Of a DNA stretch of 51,324 nucleotides, positions 27,109-47,084 are shown piece after piece. Position numbers and translations under genes: made by a program. The notes below the pieces were generated by a model. It saw only the letters and a program-made list of their open reading frames with translations. It was not told where the DNA came from and searched no databases. Numbering within the stretch: the first letter of the stretch is position 1; every line of letters begins with the position of its first letter. This DNA comes from Escherichia phage WaterSpirit. The DNA lies in the sequence record OR896833.1; one strand, written 5' to 3'.

Positions 27109-28020
27109 TTATAAAAGCGATTCAGGCTTGTAAAGTTTTTTCTCAATGCCATTTTTGAAGTTTCCACCAATCGGCAGCATAACATCAAGGTTTCTTTCAT
27201 CGGCGGCGATTATTACATCACGATCATCTTTATGGCATACGACGCGCATCTTTCGATTTCCTTTGTATCTGTGGGCAACCATCTCAAGATTGTAGTTATT
27301 GTAGCACGTCCATACTTCTTGCCCCGTCGCAAGGTGCACATGCTGAGCATTTACCCAGTCAGTGCACAAATAGATCGTCTTATCTGTGCTACCAGTTACA
27401 ACAACCGATCCGCGCGTGTAATCCTTTGCCAGAAATGATTTATCGCCTTCCTCGGTGATAAAGAGAATATTGCACATCTCATCATCCACGCCGTCTTCGT
27501 GAACAAGTCGGCACGGAAGCGCGTGAATGTATCGCCCATCCTTAACGCCGCAATCGTAATGACCATCATCAGGCGGGTAGATTCCTTCAAATACGCTTAA
27601 AGGAGTGCGATCAAATTTAAGCGTCTTTGCCATTACTCTTTCACAGCATTCATGGCTGGCCTGCTTCCCGAAATTGTAGCCGGACGAGCGCGACGCTATC
27701 TTGTTAGCCTTTGCCACCACCTCGACCGGAACGAGGTTGAGCCAGTCGCCCAGCGTGTTAATTGCTTCGCTATAGCTTTCCCCGCGCAATCGCATAAACA
27801 ACCCGATCCCGCTATCGTTACCGCATACGTTGCAGATATTGCCGCCATCACCTTTCTTTGCGAGTTGGTTAGTCCAACGAGCGCGATCTTTGCCACCACA
27901 ATACAGGCACGGTTGATGCTTGCCATTAAAGAAAGATTGAGGCGCATTGCATAGTTTCATTAATGCAGTTTGCCACATTCCAAGCATACGCGGTAAAACT
28001 TCGTCTTTGTCGTAGTGCAT
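27109..28020 (-). CDS. DNA primase (zinc-ribbon + TOPRIM-like)
   Basis: 303 aa from ATG 28020 (RBS GAGGT); CxxC...CxxC zinc-binding motif followed by acidic TOPRIM-like segment. Confidence 0.55.
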   Translation of the reverse strand: MHYDKDEVLPRMLGMWQTALMKLCNAPQSFFNGKHQPCLYCGGKDRARWTNQLAKKGDGGNICNVCGNDSGIGLFMRLRGESYSEAINTLGDWLNLVPVEVVAKANKIASRSSGYNFGKQASHECCERVMAKTLKFDRTPLSVFEGIYPPDDGHYDCGVKDGRYIHALPCRLVHEDGVDDEMCNILFITEEGDKSFLAKDYTRGSVVVTGSTDKTIYLCTDWVNAQHVHLATGQEVWTCYNNYNLEMVAHRYKGNRKMRVVCHKDDRDVIIAADERNLDVMLPIGGNFKNGIEKKLYKPESLL

Positions 28021-28077
28021 TGTAAACCTCATACAAGAAAAAGCCTGGCAATGATAAACCACGCCAGGCAATTAACT

Positions 28078-28554
28078 TTAGCTATTTGTGCTTTTTGGTT
28101 CTTTGTAAAATATTCCGCCAGGTTCATAATCGCGCATCGTTACCACTCGCAACATCTCACGACGTTCGCAACGTGTAACAAGCGGCTTACCGTTTGAGTC
28201 GAATTTTAGATCCGGGCGACAGAATGATGCGCGATATCCTTTACAGCCATTATATTTGTAGTCATTATGCACGCGTTGTGCGCCCATCGCTGAAATCATC
28301 CCGCGCTTGCGCCACATATTTACAGTTTGCTGGGATACTCCCAATCGACGAGCCATATTTGCCACACCTCCGAAATACTCCAGAAGAATATCAAGGCGAG
28401 CGGTCAGTCCGGCTTTTACTTCTTCTTTCAGTATGTAATATCCGGTGCGCGGCTTGCGTGGCTTCTTGTCCTTGCCGCGTCGCGTTCCGTTGTTGCCGTT
28501 CAATGTTCTCTTGTCAATCTCACCAGTATAGGCCGCGATTCGCTTTTCTTTCAT
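28078..28554 (-). CDS. HTH DNA-binding protein (158 aa), basic N-terminus
   Basis: From ATG 28554 (RBS GAGGTG); helix-turn-helix-like segment VANMARRLGVSQQTVNMWRKRGMIS. Confidence 0.45.
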   Translation of the reverse strand: MKEKRIAAYTGEIDKRTLNGNNGTRRGKDKKPRKPRTGYYILKEEVKAGLTARLDILLEYFGGVANMARRLGVSQQTVNMWRKRGMISAMGAQRVHNDYKYNGCKGYRASFCRPDLKFDSNGKPLVTRCERREMLRVVTMRDYEPGGIFYKEPKSTNS

Positions 28555-28565
28555 TTTGCACCTCA

Positions 28566-28607
28566 TAGCACTTTTTGTTAAAAATAGCTTTTGAACGTGT
28601 GTATTAT
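28566..28607 (+). promoter_or_regulatory. 18-bp element + 18-nt spacer + TATTAT, upstream of helicase operon
   Basis: TAGCACTTTTTGTTAAAAA at 28566-28584; -10-like at 28602-28607. Confidence 0.4.
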
Positions 28608-28639
28608 ACACGCCTAATGGCTTATTAAAAGAGACAGTT

Positions 28640-30679
28640 ATGATTCCTAATATTGAAAAGCAGATAGCCGCTTTAGGTGAAGAAACGATCCGAAAAATAC
28701 AGGAGCGTTTCACGGTTGGCGATATTGTGCCATATCCTTACCAGGTTGTTGCATACACTGAGATCGCAAAGCGTATGCGCAATTATCAGCATCCATTCTT
28801 TATTAAAGCGTCAGTATCAGCAGGCAAAACATTGATGTTTGCAATGGTTGCGGCGCAATGCCGGAAAATGGGCTTGAAAATGATGGTATTGGCGCGACAG
28901 GCTGAAATTGTGGATCAGGATTCAGAGGAGATCACAAATCTCGGCGTGCCAAATTCCATTTATTGTGCCGGACTGAAAACAAAAAGCGCATACTTTCCTA
29001 TTGTGGTTGGTTCTGAGGGTACTGTAGTTAATGGCTTGTTTAAGTCACTTGGCGACTACGTGCCGCACGTTATCGGGATTGACGAGTGTCATCAAGTGGA
29101 TTGGGAAGACCTTGCCGACGCGATAGAGAATGATGAATCACTCATTCAAATGACGACAAAAAAGGGCGAGAAAGTAAAGAATCCAGATTACGACATCACG
29201 AACGCCCATGAGTGTGATGAATTCCTGATTGGGGAAGATGGCTTGCCAATGGAAGGAACAGGCCGGACACAGTACACCGTTATCATCATGGAAATGATGC
29301 GTCGTTGCAGGAAGGAATACGGTCACGAATTGCGTATATTTGGCATGACTGGATCGGAATTTCGCGGCGTGGTTCCAATCCTGGTTGAAGATAAAAAACA
29401 GAAAGGATTTTGGCGAGAACAGGTTACGAACATAGATACCAACTACCTGATCAAATTCGGTTCGGTCGTGCCAACTAATTTTGGCGACGTTGGCGATCTC
29501 GGTTATGACCTGTCAGAGTTCGAGGCATCCAGCGAGGACGGCGTTGCAGATTTTGACGCTAAAACGCTTCGCAAAATGGAACAGAAGATCCATGAAGAAG
29601 CCACCATGACTAAGCGCATCATGGAGAAGGTGCACGAAATATGTAAAAACCGTAACGGCGTATTGGTGACATGTGCAGGTGAAAGACATTGTAAAGAGGC
29701 GGCGGCAGCGTTGCCACCTGGCACGACTTACCGGATCATCACTGGCAAGACTGGCGACAACCAGCGTAAAGAATGGCTGAAAGAAGCATACGAGGGTAAA
29801 GTAAAATACATCTTCCAGGTGCAGGCGCTAACCACTGGCGTTAATGTGCCGTTTTGGGATACGTCGGTTATTCTGCGCAAGATTGGATCTCTTACGTTGC
29901 TGATTCAGCTTTTAGGTCGCGGTATGCGACTTCTTAAAAAGTGGCACAAAGAGCAGGGCTTTCATAAAGACGATCATCTTGTTTTGGATTTTTCCGGCAC
30001 GATGGACGAGTTAGGGGAGCTTTATTTCGATCCGATACTGGAGCAGGCACAGCATCAGAAGAGATTCAAAAACGGAAAAGATCCTAAGCCTTGCCCTGTA
30101 TGCAAGACGTTAAACAGCTATTACGCTCGACGTTGTATGCACGTAGACGAAAACGGAAACAGATGCGAATGGTTTTTCAAATACAAGATATGCGAGGATC
30201 GGATAGACCAGCGCACCAGAAAGGTTATCCATCACGGCTGTGGTACTAAGAATGATATTGCGGCCAGGGTGTGCAGGCATTGCGATGTGTCGCTTATTGA
30301 CCCTAACGAAAAGTTAAGCGGTAAGCACTACACAAAAAACGACTGGTTCCAGGTAAAATCTTTCTCGGTTGACATGACGAAAAATCAGAAAGGGATCATC
30401 TTCAATTATGAGCTTTCCGACGGCATCGACACATTCAGGGCGCGAGAGATATTTTTCCCTGAATCAGAAAGCCAGATTTGCAGGGATAAATGGCGTAGAG
30501 TCGCGTTAAAGCATATACCGGATCGCCGTATTGCTGGCATGGTGGCAAGCTATCGCAATGCAAGAAAAATCATGCAATATGCGAATCACATCATGCAGCC
30601 GTCGATGGTAACTCACCGCAAGACGAGTAAGGGCGAAGATAATCTATACAAGAAGGAGTTTAATTATGGCAATGACTGA
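28640..30679 (+). CDS. ATP-dependent DNA helicase (superfamily 2-like) with C-terminal Cys-rich zinc-finger region
   Basis: 679 aa; Walker A SAGKT, DECH box (GIDECHQ), multiple CxxC pairs in C-terminal third. Confidence 0.7.
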   Translation: MIPNIEKQIAALGEETIRKIQERFTVGDIVPYPYQVVAYTEIAKRMRNYQHPFFIKASVSAGKTLMFAMVAAQCRKMGLKMMVLARQAEIVDQDSEEITNLGVPNSIYCAGLKTKSAYFPIVVGSEGTVVNGLFKSLGDYVPHVIGIDECHQVDWEDLADAIENDESLIQMTTKKGEKVKNPDYDITNAHECDEFLIGEDGLPMEGTGRTQYTVIIMEMMRRCRKEYGHELRIFGMTGSEFRGVVPILVEDKKQKGFWREQVTNIDTNYLIKFGSVVPTNFGDVGDLGYDLSEFEASSEDGVADFDAKTLRKMEQKIHEEATMTKRIMEKVHEICKNRNGVLVTCAGERHCKEAAAALPPGTTYRIITGKTGDNQRKEWLKEAYEGKVKYIFQVQALTTGVNVPFWDTSVILRKIGSLTLLIQLLGRGMRLLKKWHKEQGFHKDDHLVLDFSGTMDELGELYFDPILEQAQHQKRFKNGKDPKPCPVCKTLNSYYARRCMHVDENGNRCEWFFKYKICEDRIDQRTRKVIHHGCGTKNDIAARVCRHCDVSLIDPNEKLSGKHYTKNDWFQVKSFSVDMTKNQKGIIFNYELSDGIDTFRAREIFFPESESQICRDKWRRVALKHIPDRRIAGMVASYRNARKIMQYANHIMQPSMVTHRKTSKGEDNLYKKEFNYGND

Positions 30680-41281: not shown

Positions 41282-41511
41282 ACATCATTGATAAAATCAG
41301 CGCGGCCTTTAATGTTGCTGATGTGGAAAGTCTTTTCAGCGTACAGGCCATCACCTTCAATCACGATCATTACGCGAGTCGGTTTATTCACGGGCGCACA
41401 TGAAAAGAGTGGGCGCACCGGAAGAAATTTAGTAGTCACATCCAGGTTAGCCCTGGCCGCCCTGCAAAATGCCTCCGCCAGATCTAAATCATTTTCGGTA
41501 ATCACCGCCAT
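41245..41511 (-). CDS. Hypothetical protein (88 aa)
   Basis: ORF in early-left operon. Confidence 0.3.
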   Translation of the reverse strand: MAVITENDLDLAEAFCRAARANLDVTTKFLPVRPLFSCAPVNKPTRVMIVIEGDGLYAEKTFHISNIKGRADFINDVCLLQEKKKCLM

Positions 41512-41783
41512 TACTTCTTGATCTCCTCACTGATAAATTTCAGCACCCGGCGCAAGAAAACTTCGTTGTTGATAGTCGCTGGCAATTCTTCTTTCACCTC
41601 TTGCGGCAGATAGATATTGCCGTGCCAGGTCAAGCAATCGTAGTTGATACGATAAGAGCAAAGCCACTCGCAATCGTTATCTGCTTCCCAAATGCAGAGT
41701 TGCAGAACATCGCCTAAGTTCTCAACAGTCAGATCCAGACCGTGACGCTTAGCGAAATTGAAAGTGGTTTTGCTGATGTTCAT
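41511..41783 (-). CDS. Hypothetical protein (90 aa), first gene of early-left operon
   Basis: RBS GGAGATAGCAAATG. Confidence 0.35.
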   Translation of the reverse strand: MNISKTTFNFAKRHGLDLTVENLGDVLQLCIWEADNDCEWLCSYRINYDCLTWHGNIYLPQEVKEELPATINNEVFLRRVLKFISEEIKK

Positions 41784-42456: not shown

Positions 42457-42484
42457 TTGACACGCATGAAATAGCACTTATAAT
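42457..42484 (+). promoter_or_regulatory. Near-consensus sigma70 early promoter (TTGACA-16-TATAAT)
   Basis: Direct read; spacer contains AAATAGCAC; drives early-right gene block. Confidence 0.65.
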
Positions 42485-42515: not shown

Positions 42516-42977
42516 ATGAGTCAGAAAACATCGAAAGACTATTGCGACTGGTTGCGAGAGCTTGGGCGACGCCTTGCAAGCGGCGAGATTGTAGAGCATA
42601 AAATGTCAGTTCTCGACCTTGCCGGAATGTTAAACGGCGACGACTACTACAAGGTGACAAAGAATCAGGCATACAGCCGCACAATAATCAACCGTGTGCC
42701 GGAAGTGAAAGCGGTTGGAAAGGTGCGAATCAGAACGGAAGAAACGGAAGACGATAAGTTTTACGTTTTCAGCCTGAATCGCGACGTTAAGCGCAAGGTG
42801 ATCACGAGCGAAGACTTGCCAGCCGTCCAGGCAAAGGCGGTAGAAAAGTTCGCCGCTCGCATTCTTGCATCAATGCCAAACGTTACCGATATGCAAGGCG
42901 ATAAACTGGCTGGAGCTTGTGAAGGAATAAGCCGCTACCAGGAAATGATCCGCAATCTTGTTAACGAGGAGAAATGA
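42516..42977 (+). CDS. Hypothetical early protein (153 aa)
   Basis: RBS AGGAGG 7 nt upstream; first gene after the strong promoter. Confidence 0.4.
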   Translation: MSQKTSKDYCDWLRELGRRLASGEIVEHKMSVLDLAGMLNGDDYYKVTKNQAYSRTIINRVPEVKAVGKVRIRTEETEDDKFYVFSLNRDVKRKVITSEDLPAVQAKAVEKFAARILASMPNVTDMQGDKLAGACEGISRYQEMIRNLVNEEK

Positions 42978-42978
42978 A

Positions 42979-43242
42979 ATGAATAAGGCATTAATGGCGG
43001 TTTTTATGGCAACAGCATTCCTTACCGGATGTAATGGTGATGGTGCTTACGTCGATGCACAAATGGCTAACCCTGCCGATACTTACAACGTCAGAAAACT
43101 ATTTACAGTTGATGGTTGCGATGTGTACAGGTTCAGCGATAGCCGATACGTGTACTTTACCAACTGCCAGGGTAGCGCAAACTGGTCAACTAACGAAGGT
43201 AAGTCGGTTAGTCACTACCAGAACACAACAAACGTTAAATAG
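42979..43242 (+). CDS. Early lipoprotein (87 aa)
   Basis: RBS GAGGAGAAA; signal peptide with lipobox LTGC; two Cys pairs in mature part. Confidence 0.5.
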   Translation: MNKALMAVFMATAFLTGCNGDGAYVDAQMANPADTYNVRKLFTVDGCDVYRFSDSRYVYFTNCQGSANWSTNEGKSVSHYQNTTNVK

Positions 43243-43282
43243 CACTTTTTGTTAAAACTCAAAAACGATAACCAGTCATAAT
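43240..43282 (+). promoter_or_regulatory. 18-bp element (TAG = stop codon) + 19-nt spacer + CATAAT
   Basis: TAGCACTTTTTGTTAAAA 43240-43257; CATAAT 43277-43282. Confidence 0.45.
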
Positions 43283-43288
43283 ACACAC

Positions 43289-43484
43289 ATAGACGGGCGG
43301 CAAGGATTGCTGCGGGAGAGGAGCGACGCAGGGGCTTGATCGAAGTGTCAGGATTCCCAACCGTGAGGCCAGAACTATCACACTCGCCACCAGGCAGAAC
43401 GCTAGATAGGTCACTGAACTGAGGCTACCGACGAAGTGAAGCCCGTCACCAAAGATTAAACGGTTATTTATGTGAAAGGGGTTA
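43289..43484 (+). ncRNA. Candidate structured RNA / long structured 5' leader
   Basis: About 195 nt GC-rich non-coding segment between a promoter and the next RBS; long-range complementarity GACGGG (43292-43297) with CCCGTC (43442-43447) plus several local stems. Not verified by folding or homology. Confidence 0.25.
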
Positions 43485-43667
43485 ATGATGGATAAAATCA
43501 TCAAAATGAGCGAAGTCAAACCGGGAATGATGGTTAAGTTTGCTGGCAAATATCGCCTGGTGCTGGATAACTGCCGCAAAGAGAACATTCTCACCATTCG
43601 CGTTAACGGCAAGGCGCAGCTATTCGCCCCCAACGCAGATATTAATGTTGAGGTAAGAATTAAGTAA
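43485..43667 (+). CDS. Hypothetical protein (60 aa)
   Basis: RBS AAAGGGG upstream. Confidence 0.3.
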   Translation: MMDKIIKMSEVKPGMMVKFAGKYRLVLDNCRKENILTIRVNGKAQLFAPNADINVEVRIK

Positions 43668-43735
43668 TAATCCAGGCCGTAAAATCCGGCCTATAACCAG
43701 AAATAATTTTGTTAAACCAATCAGGAGAAAGCACC

Positions 43736-44626
43736 ATGTTAAAACTTGCTGACATTAAATTCCCGATCACCTTCCAATCAAAGGGAGTCGGACACTTCAT
43801 GTTTACCGATGAAAATACATGCACTAAGTTTAACGAATACGGAAAGCCTGATGTTTCATCAATGGAGATTGATCACTTCATTGATGCGCATAACAAGCAC
43901 TACAACTCGCTTAAAGACTACGGCTACGCAATGCCAGGATATACCAGCCTCCACTACAAGCCATATAAAGGCCAGGTGTTACCAGTGCGCTCGCCGGAAC
44001 GCGCAGAGATTCCGATGGTCGAGATGAAAACATGCGACTATAAAAAGCTGTGGTGCTTAAACGTGGACAATATCAAGTATCCGATCACGTTCCGAGCCAC
44101 TGGTGATAGCACGATAACATATACATCAAGAGATAACGGCGTTTATAGCGATGGTCAGAAATCAGAGCTAAAAGTTGATTTCTTTGTTAATGGTCACAAT
44201 AGATTCAACCCACACAATGAAAAAGATAAGGTGTACTACGTGGAAGACATTACAAAACACTTATTTGGAGAAACACCATTCGGCGGCGGGAAGACGTCAA
44301 TTCAGAAAATAATTGGCGAGGAGATCCACAAAGCGGCTAACGAAATAAAAGCGCCTGGAGGCTGGCGTATTGATAAGAGCGCCTTTGCCAATCAAGAAAT
44401 CTTAACGCAGGGAGCAATTGAAGACATGCCAGTTGCAGCCACTCTAAAAGGAGTCCAGCTTGATGATGGTTCATGGTATGAACTAACTGCGAAACCAAAG
44501 ACGATTGAGATTCATGATGATGTTGTTATCCTTCTGCTTCACTATGGCAGCGCAAAAAACCGGACTGTTGCGGGTGAGATCAGCATCAAGCGCGGAACGA
44601 TGGTTAAGTGGAAGGTGAAGATTTGA
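43736..44626 (+). CDS. Hypothetical protein with internal tandem domain duplication (296 aa)
   Basis: RBS CAGGAG 8 nt upstream of ATG 43736; repeated segment D(I/N)K(F/Y)PITF...F(I/V)(D/N)(A/G)HN at aa ~5-60 and ~120-180. Confidence 0.45.
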   Translation: MLKLADIKFPITFQSKGVGHFMFTDENTCTKFNEYGKPDVSSMEIDHFIDAHNKHYNSLKDYGYAMPGYTSLHYKPYKGQVLPVRSPERAEIPMVEMKTCDYKKLWCLNVDNIKYPITFRATGDSTITYTSRDNGVYSDGQKSELKVDFFVNGHNRFNPHNEKDKVYYVEDITKHLFGETPFGGGKTSIQKIIGEEIHKAANEIKAPGGWRIDKSAFANQEILTQGAIEDMPVAATLKGVQLDDGSWYELTAKPKTIEIHDDVVILLLHYGSAKNRTVAGEISIKRGTMVKWKVKI

Positions 44627-45335: not shown

Positions 45336-45878
45336 ATGAAAAAATACACTTTCGAACTATGGGGCAAGAAATACGAATTAATGACCAGCAAGCCGATTGT
45401 TATCGTTGATCTTGATGGCACGCTATCGGACGGATCGCATCGTTTGCACTTGTTGCCAACGGAAAACTTGCACCTTACTGAATCGTGGAGCGAATTTAAC
45501 AGGGCAGCCGCCGGAGATTCACCTATTAAGAGCACGATCGCGGTTATTAACGGTTTATGGGTATCAGGATTCGCCGTCATTATCCTGACCGGACGCAGCG
45601 ACGAAGTTCGCTATGAAACATGCAAATGGTTGAATGAGAACGGAGTGAAGTTTGACGAAATCATCATGCGCCGCCAGGAGGATAACCGAAAGGATACGGT
45701 TATTAAAGAAGAAGCCTTGCGCGCTATTGGCCTGGACAATATCGTTTGCGCCTTTGACGATTCCGCGAACGTGGTGAAGCACTTCCGTAACCTGGGGATC
45801 ACAACCTATCAGGTAACGGAATATGACAAGCCACACGCTCACCTGCAATCTCACGGCGTGGAGGAGTTGCAGAAATGA
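45336..45878 (+). CDS. HAD-superfamily phosphatase (polynucleotide 3'-phosphatase-like)
   Basis: 180 aa; HAD motif I DLDGTLSDG near N-terminus; small size typical of phage Pnk phosphatase domains. Confidence 0.5.
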   Translation: MKKYTFELWGKKYELMTSKPIVIVDLDGTLSDGSHRLHLLPTENLHLTESWSEFNRAAAGDSPIKSTIAVINGLWVSGFAVIILTGRSDEVRYETCKWLNENGVKFDEIIMRRQEDNRKDTVIKEEALRAIGLDNIVCAFDDSANVVKHFRNLGITTYQVTEYDKPHAHLQSHGVEELQK

Positions 45879-47044: not shown

Positions 47045-47084
47045 CACGAATTGCTAAACGCGGGGCGCAATGCTCCGCTATAAT
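47042..47084 (+). promoter_or_regulatory. 18-bp element, GAATTGC variant + 19-nt spacer + TATAAT
   Basis: TAGCACGAATTGCTAAAC 47042-47059; TATAAT 47079-47084 inside CGGGG/CCCCG hairpin. Confidence 0.45.

Follow-up and report, generated by a model that had tools for sequence, protein, structure and literature searches.

A conserved, probably structured RNA at the putative 5′ end of an early transcript in Escherichia phage WaterSpirit and unrelated phages

What is encoded in a GC-rich gap that lies directly behind a promoter-like sequence in a coliphage genome, and could it be an RNA in its own right? The question was raised by one locus in the genome of Escherichia phage WaterSpirit (OR896833.1), of which the whole stretch of 51,324 nt, here called the window, was analyzed. 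The window represents a Drexlerviridae coliphage (Tempevirinae, Warwickvirus-like) and is about 99% identical to BEBK14 and swan01 around the locus. A preliminary description made from the DNA letters alone had proposed that the segment between a promoter and the next gene (43289-43484) carries no credible ORF and is a candidate for a structured non-coding RNA or riboregulatory leader. The gap of 242 nt in which it lies, between the plus-strand ORFs 42958-43242 and 43485-43667, was indeed found to be non-coding and GC-richer than its surroundings, with a G+C content of 0.59 at 43300-43399 compared with 0.37 at 43200-43299 and 0.36 at 43450-43549. The long-range complementarity that had been noticed between GACGGG (43292-43297) and CCCGTC (43442-43447) is present and extends to 7 bp (43292-43298 with 43441-43447). 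The resulting helix, GACGGGC/GCCCGUC, closes a domain of 156 nt at 43292-43447 on the plus strand, hereafter the RNA element, which ends about 37 nt before the next gene. A full scan of the window with the covariance model detected one copy at 147 bits, while the next best match reached 12 bits. The features of the locus are as follows.

43239-43257, plus strand: 21-nt Drexlerviridae repeat ATAGCACTTTTTGTTAAAA, upstream part of a promoter-like unit; 11 full copies in the window; match to the TLS/T1 repeat aaATAGCACnnnTTGnTAAAA (PMC11447400).
43277-43282, plus strand: -10 hexamer CATAAT, read from the sequence; putative start site at about 43287-43289.
43292-43298, plus strand: 5′ strand of P1, GACGGGC, pairing with 43441-43447; 7 of 7 pairs with double changes.
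43299-43311, plus strand: P2 hairpin GGCA-AGGAU-UGCU with the invariant AGGA loop; loop the same in all sequences, stem swapped entirely in homologue L033 (AGCUAUA-AGGA-UAUAGCU).
43312-43325, plus strand: 5′ strand of P3a (GC), invariant purine loop GGGAGA, 5′ strand of P3b (GGAGC) and junction G; long-range helix in RNAalifold.
43326-43366, plus strand: P4 (ACG / CGU) around P5, which comprises GGGG..UCCC and the hairpin CUUGAU-CGAAGU-GUCAGG, then the invariant AACCGUGA; compensations in P5b.
43367-43421, plus strand: variable arm P6a/P6b with the P7 hairpin (GCC-ACCA-GGC), flanked by the invariant CACU and AGAACGC; covarying.
43422-43440, plus strand: invariant block AGGCUACCGACGAAG (3′ strand of P3b, loop GACGAA, 3′ strand of P3a), then linker UGAA; varies only as Y at 43426 and R at 43435.
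43441-43447, plus strand: 3′ strand of P1, GCCCGUC, complementary to the 5′ strand.
43448-43484, plus strand: G-poor, A/C/U-rich linker (ACCAAAGAUUAAAC...) and Shine-Dalgarno (SD) sequence GGGG at 43478-43481; loose ACC...UUAAC / UUAAAC / UCAAC motif in most clades.
43485-43667, plus strand: first downstream gene, 60 aa, PHROG 8121 (E = 3.5e-33), function unknown; missing in BabyEgg, Jahat and haarsle together with the RNA interior.

The promoter class to which CATAAT had been assigned is real. Full copies of ATAGCACTTTTTGTTAAAA occur 11 times in the window (plus strand: 28574, 31091, 32130, 43248 and 48397; minus strand: 41853, 40769, 40269, 38357, 35513 and 9943), each is followed about 20 nt downstream by a -10-like hexamer, often with a GC-rich hairpin in the spacer, and these units are presumably active promoters. 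Behind the hexamer stands a short conserved leader (ACACACAUCGAAACAAAC...SD); the leaders of the other copies are short and unstructured. The 21-nt repeat aaATAGCACnnnTTGnTAAAA has been described for TLS, T1 and Rtp, where it normally lies about 76 nt from the start codon and where its function is listed as an open question (PMC11447400). At 43239-43257, aaATAGCACnnnTTGnTAAAA is situated upstream of a gene and in the orientation in which transcription proceeds, as in other Drexlerviridae repeat units. The distance to the ATG is 246 nt instead of the usual 76 nt or so, because the leader is filled by the 156-nt RNA domain. In every clade of homologues P1 begins 7-10 nt after a -10 hexamer, which is often part of a full sigma-70 promoter (e.g. 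TTGACA-18-TATTAT in Dhillonvirus and TTGACA-17-TATAGT in homologue L016), and the RNA should therefore form the 5′ end of the transcript, with the start sites predicted from the promoters. Additionally, a consensus-perfect sigma-70 promoter (TTGACA-16-TATAAT, 42457-42484, plus strand) stands 0.8 kb upstream of the RNA element, where the genes diverge, and is probably the main rightward early promoter.

Taken by itself, the sequence at 43285-43490 folds no better than its shuffled versions (MFE z = +0.81; an equal or better energy in 159 of 200 shuffles), and it is through comparative evidence, not through this sequence alone, that the predicted element stands above chance. RNAalifold already gave the long-range helices on a MAFFT alignment. 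The ends were mis-registered in that alignment, which was replaced by a hand-made structural alignment padded with N (A5, in which 19 distinct sequences fill 168 columns). In this alignment, which was built with the structure in mind and represents about six independent lineages, 96.1% of the cells in a model of 47 pairs and nine helices are standard pairs, as opposed to 77.9 ± 0.9% in column shuffles, none of 500 of which reached the observed value, and to 29-42% when the partners were slid by one to three columns. Both sides had changed in 28 of the 47 pairs compared with 18.6 in shuffles, and the covariation score was 0.48 compared with 0.15. G-U pairs, which would be C-A on the opposite strand, place the RNA on the plus strand.

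According to the model, P1 closes a junction of P1, P2 and P3, followed by a conserved 6x6 purine internal loop and by an inner three-way junction with P4-P5 and P6-P7; a P1-closed junction with conserved unpaired bases is an aptamer-like fold. About 65 positions are invariant and most of these are unpaired: the AGGA of the P2 loop, GGGAGA/GACGAA of the 6x6 loop, AACCGUGA, CACU, AGAACGC and ACCGACGA. The support is robust for P1, for which at least five unrelated sequences occur across the clades, all of them complementary; for P6b, with three to five pair types at each of five variable positions; for P6a and P7, which both covary; for P2, owing to the full stem swap in L033; and for P5b, with three lineage-specific compensations (C-G to U-A in L033, G-C to A-U in KMI8 and an A-to-U rescue in Lumpael). 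In P3a, the outer pair alone displays four pair types (G-C, A-U, U-A and G-U). Two helices are provisional. P3b shows one A-U/G-C switch, which coincides with the main clade split, and the same two-state pattern is seen in many unrelated column pairs; P4 is invariant throughout and hence shows no covariation. An all-against-all search for additional covarying column pairs (pseudoknots) was swamped by such clade-linked two-state columns.

The preliminary description had singled out missing covariation among homologues as telling against its proposal. Covariation was found, RNAalifold recovers the long-range helices, and with homologues in at least five phage lineages and strong covariation in P1, P2, P5b, P6a, P6b and P7 the proposal of a structured RNA holds. 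As far as comparative sequence evidence reaches, a conserved folded RNA at the very start of an early phage transcript is thereby confirmed as a real observation.

A coding function of the same stretch was considered as well. The minus-strand ORF at 43259-43633 had been called spurious, and this judgement is upheld: the ORF is the stop-poor complement of a purine-rich strand, lies antisense to the conserved RNA and overlaps the genuine 60-aa gene on the plus strand. An ORF of 28 aa on the plus strand (43336-43422) lacks its start codon in Dhillonvirus. The spacing between invariant blocks differs by 1 nt among clades (14 vs 15 nt and 19 vs 20 nt); therefore any reading frame, on either strand, would be shifted, and the element is not coding. 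In addition, the substitution pattern is compensatory and the reading frame is not conserved among homologues. Small CDSs of a 'hypothetical protein' are annotated inside the element in HeidiAbel_Bas97 (record L002, 1549-1668) and in other GenBank records; these are probably mis-annotations.

The distribution of the element was determined by BLAST and by pattern scans. A core of about 150 nt was detected by BLAST in 171 of 50,697 GenBank phage records, about 134 of them Dhillonvirus and about 20 of the Warwickvirus/Hanrivervirus type; the remainder includes PHB17 (Changchunvirus), Klebsiella phage KMI8, the Murrayvirus Lumpael, which is a P22-like podovirus by its tail genes, the Sortsnevirus IME279, and HeidiAbel_Bas97 with its relatives. 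Several records labelled as 'Campylobacter', 'Acinetobacter' or 'Pseudomonas' phages among the BLAST matches are likewise Dhillonvirus-like. With the pattern scans, a further 22 contigs from IMG/VR and 15 from metagenomes (39-52 kb) were identified, and all of these were confirmed by the covariance model at 146-174 bits. Within the Drexlerviridae the element is patchy and occurs in a subset only, it is apparently universal in Dhillonvirus, and its core is near-identical across unrelated phage genera. No copy was found in 5,426 E. coli genomes or in plasmids, and the only true match of an exact-pattern scan of 185,579 species genomes was one probably mis-binned phage contig. When the pattern scans of IMG/VR, the 185,579 species genomes and the metagenomes were loosened, no new lineage appeared; apart from the one mis-binned phage contig, the extra matches were chance matches rejected by the covariance model. 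The contig QFQS01000013.1 (42.7 kb), in which the element scores 162 bits, has been assigned to a Cereibacter sphaeroides MAG; it has the look of a Sortsnevirus-type enterobacterial phage and is probably mis-binned. On the genomes covered by these searches, the element is confined to phages.

An Infernal search against Rfam, which the preliminary description had suggested as a check, was negative. With Rfam 15 (4227 families) no match at the gathering score was obtained anywhere in the window, and at E<=10 only noise was returned for the window and for the Dhillonvirus and HeidiAbel copies. The CsrB/CsrC/Rsm models of Rfam did not match, and no tRNA or tmRNA was predicted by ARAGORN. The literature, searched by topic and by sequence string, contained no description of the element, the sole string match being a CRISPR-type guide target. 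Some resemblances were followed up and rejected. A tRNA-like acceptor end (7-bp P1 plus ACCA) is suggested by ACC(A/U) after P1 in many clades, but not in all; a boxA-like tail (CUUUAAC) lacks GCUC and is too loosely conserved. Two short strings in the element resemble the Vc2 c-di-GMP-I aptamer, but an identity with the c-di-GMP-I class is given no support by cmscan. By its sequence and predicted fold, the element is an undescribed RNA family and belongs to the wide, familiar group of structured leader RNAs or ncRNAs of phages.

The first ORF behind the element begins 38-48 nt after the ACCGACGAAG block in nearly all variants and 28 nt after it in one, and the linkers and ribosome binding sites of Dhillonvirus and PHB17 resemble the enhancer/RBS of T7 gene 10 (GGAGATATAC). 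The first ORFs themselves are mutually unrelated and fall into different PHROGs of unknown function, with one Kil-like septation inhibitor among them (phrog_2055, E = 1.8e-23; first gene after the element at about 5075-5225 of L013, a 30-kb viral contig). When the window was compared with the complete genomes of EP23 and Lumpael, a Dam methylase was the sole protein that all three shared; therefore a dedicated phage protein partner is unlikely. Given unrelated downstream genes in the different clades and, apart from Dam, no co-occurring phage protein, the partner of the RNA is probably a host component. Two other genes of the window were noted. Homologues of a 90-aa ORF (41511-41783, minus strand; 36-60% identity) are situated no more than about 2.5 kb away from the element in Lumpael, PHB17 and KMI8, and none was found in the genome of the Dhillonvirus EP23. 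A polynucleotide kinase/phosphatase-like gene, so annotated in phage tunus, is located 1.9 kb downstream in the same gene string (45336-45878, plus strand).

In the window's own lineage the element appears as an accessory module. When the region 43180-43760 was aligned with BabyEgg, Jahat_MG145 and haarsle, the same repeat and -10 hexamer were found to be followed only by a 7-bp hairpin, GGGCGGC...GUCGCCC, which resembles P1 of the Murrayvirus-type element and has a homologue of the window's 305-aa gene directly behind it. The additional module of the window comprises the RNA interior, the 60-aa ORF, a hairpin (43673-43693) and a truncated repeat (43704-43716). The state of these three phages is either a natural interior-deletion allele or the ancestral one. 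Since close relatives do without the interior, phages of this lineage do not need it to grow on laboratory E. coli. The truncated repeat lies within the transcript, where AGAAATAATTTTGTTAAAC at 43695-43716 is 17/18 identical to the T7 gene 10 leader TAGAAATAATTTTGTTTAAC; it looks like a recombination scar that may double as an A/U-rich translational enhancer for the 305-aa gene.

Which function would account for such an RNA? Orphan RNAs of this size with much invariant loop and junction sequence have usually proved to be ribozymes, riboswitches or specific binders of core machines. The evidence favors a specific interaction of the RNA with a conserved host component, because the loops are invariant, no phage partner is apparent, the element is restricted to phages and does not depend on which gene follows. 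Such a gene-agnostic position would be expected for a general machine, for instance RNA polymerase, more than for a signal specific to one gene. Our leading guess, which is tentative and stands well below an even chance, is by analogy a cis-acting leader that would modify host RNA polymerase in the manner of HK022 put. Host RNA polymerase would make the early phage transcript with the element as its extreme 5′ end, the 156-nt domain would fold during transcription, and the approximately 65 invariant loop and junction bases would bind the conserved host component. An RNA-only anti-pausing or antitermination effect on the transcribing polymerase, as exerted by HK022 put, Bacillus EAR and Tn916 canT, might be the outcome, and transcripts headed by the element would then pass intrinsic or Rho terminators and reach the genes beyond them.

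The gene order of Dhillonvirus is consistent with such an antiterminator. There, the element lies in the region of divergent promoters, at the head of a same-strand operon that spans 10 kb or more, in which p44 and p43 are followed, about 0.7 kb downstream, by a strong intrinsic terminator (GGCCCGC-ATATTA-GCGGGCC plus a T run, 7 G-C pairs) that is conserved in EP23 (L014, 6347-6328, minus strand) and WFI (L003, 2322-2341). No promoter-like site was found in Dhillonvirus between this terminator and the genes for nuclease, DNA polymerase A, helicase and methylase. In the window, plus-strand terminator-like sites lie downstream at 47060, 48062 and 50713. Several points argue against antitermination, however. 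The interior is absent from BabyEgg, Jahat and haarsle, which keep the promoter; the element and the 60-aa ORF look like a self-contained inserted module; and long-range read-through is less needed in the window because it holds at least 11 promoters of the same class. Moreover, the 2.5 kb downstream of the element in Lumpael contain no predicted terminator, the terminator-like sites predicted downstream in PHB17 and KMI8 are weak, and P3b and P4, the organizers of the core, rest on invariant bases and one clade-linked switch.

The first alternative, doubtful in our estimation, is a stable RNA acting in trans, in which the promoter and the RNA would be a cassette with the RNA as payload; it would be cut from the mRNA in the A/U-rich linker and would sequester or mimic a host factor (CsrA, an RNase or an immune sensor) as a decoy or sponge. 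An accessory element that is patchy in the Drexlerviridae and still has a near-identical core across unrelated genera follows a pattern typical of horizontally exchanged host-manipulation modules, and a compact RNA with a GC-rich P1 closure, a defined 5′ end and no phage partner protein would suit this role. For CsrA in particular, the P2 loop reads CAGGAUG, CAGGACG or CAAGGAU and three to four further GGA motifs lie within 60 nt; the loop agrees with the CsrB repeat consensus, CAGGA(U/C/A)G, and fits the CsrA SELEX motif. Against a trans-acting RNA stands the lack of a terminator after the element in any clade, as it is always joined to an ORF via a short linker and a strong RBS. The sponge variant is further weakened by L033, in which one GGA motif (CAGGAUU) is replaced by a compensated stem change and pairing, not the motif, was therefore selected, as well as by the unmatched CsrB/CsrC/Rsm models and by the fact that most invariant bases are left unexplained by CsrA sites.

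For the broader statement that a portable, phage-exclusive RNA, moving between unrelated phage families as a cassette with its promoter, reprograms a host machine on its own, be it as an RNA-only antiterminator with a fold unlike that of put or as a decoy or sponge that captures a host regulator or an immune sensor, the chances are in our view slightly short of even.

A regulated leader is an unlikely reading. Here, an aptamer-like domain would bind a host protein (ribosome/30S, CsrA or RNase E) or a small molecule, and P1 together with the linker would set the translation or decay of the first gene or genes. The riboswitch-like build, with P1 closing multi-helix junctions, invariant loops, covarying stems and variable peripheral hairpins, is in line with this, as are the short and nearly constant distance from P1 to the SD sequence, the likeness of the linker to the translational enhancer/RBS of T7 gene 10, the display of the SD-like AGGA and GGAGAGG in loops, and the Kil-like toxic protein encoded by one downstream gene, whose dose would matter. 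However, aptamer models remained unmatched in three clades, the downstream genes are functionally unrelated and no conserved expression platform was recognized: no terminator follows P1, and complementarity of the P1 3′ strand to the SD sequence was seen by inspection in some clades only, with no conserved alternative pairing recognized across them. The element is also absent from cellular genomes, while to our knowledge every riboswitch class known in phages occurs in cellular genomes, too.

Less probable still, and in our opinion very unlikely, is a purely physical stabilizer or insulator, in which P1, in the way of the T7 phi10 5′ stem-loop, would keep RppH/RNase E from attacking the 5′ end and the interior would have no specific partner. 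P1 lies within a few nucleotides of the predicted start in all clades, the relatives that lack the interior have a simple 5′ hairpin in this position, and the T7 gene 10 leader shows the same order of 5′ hairpin, A/U-rich enhancer and SD sequence. For this purpose a hairpin alone would suffice, so that P1 and the hairpin of the relatives are explained but not the invariant interior; about 65 loop and junction bases were kept while the stems turned over completely, and therefore a specific interaction is demanded. Finally, a function other than as RNA, namely as a gene for a small protein in either orientation or as a site acting at the DNA level (for instance an origin or a recombination site), is suggested by the two overlapping ORFs with the small annotated CDSs and by the adjoining primase or helicase genes in Dhillonvirus and HeidiAbel, and is extremely improbable given the 1-nt length differences and the start codon absent in Dhillonvirus, the variation in compensating stem positions with G-U pairs valid on the plus strand only and, for an essential origin, the lack of the element in viable close relatives.

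The element resides in well-studied and tractable phages of E. coli K-12 (the BASEL Dhillonvirus phages, Bas97 and the tunus/Warwickvirus group), in which its function is directly testable, and natural 'interior-deleted' relatives can serve as controls. Should RNA polymerase be its target, coliphages would have a second RNA-only antiterminator, unrelated in structure to the first, and it would be explained how Dhillonvirus passes the terminator before its replication genes; if it is a decoy, it would be an added RNA-based tool for host takeover or anti-defence. The annotation of several GenBank records that place small CDSs inside the element would be corrected as well.

Among the known systems, CsrB/RsmZ-type sponges share with the element an AGGA or CAGGAUG in a short hairpin loop and an enrichment of GGA; the element differs in having one invariant loop site with an otherwise unrelated core, in not being a stand-alone gene and in the absent Rfam match. 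Riboswitch aptamers such as c-di-GMP-I are similar in size, in the P1-closed multi-helix junction, in invariant loops and junctions with covarying stems and in the 5′ UTR site, but no model matches the element, an expression platform is not recognizable, the downstream genes are incoherent and bacterial genomes contain no copies. The T7 phi10/gene 10 leader has the same layout of 5′ stem-loop, A/U-rich enhancer and strong SD sequence, to which the linker/RBS of Dhillonvirus and PHB17 and the window's next gene come close; in T7, a simple 21-nt hairpin stands where the element has its conserved 156-nt domain.

RNA-only antiterminators of mobile elements are diverse in size and fold; for canT, a fragment of 452 nt was used in assays, and EAR is a further case (PMC11658703). 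Bacillus EAR and Tn916 canT, larger RNAs with several helices, are situated close to the start of long operons with internal terminators (PMC11658703), a layout matched by that of Dhillonvirus. They differ from the element in their Firmicutes hosts and unrelated sequences, and no EAR match was obtained in the Rfam search. EAR is an Rfam family. HK022 put, of about 70 nt, consists of two stem-loops arranged in a V shape (PMC9378689). The element differs from put with its 156 nt, nine helices, terminal helix P1 and two junctions, and it is present once per genome whereas put is present twice. Membership in the put family was rejected on account of size and architecture; the two RNAs are not similar in sequence or structure, and the covariance model (R1, filters off) scored at most 7.3 bits on HK022 27600-30100 (PL/PR region). 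With put the element has in common that a phage encodes it as part of a nascent transcript, directly behind an early sigma-70 promoter as in the case of putL (a predicted promoter here), that unpaired bases are conserved, that probably no phage protein is needed, that the identity of the downstream gene seems immaterial and that host RNA polymerase is the sole polymerase available.
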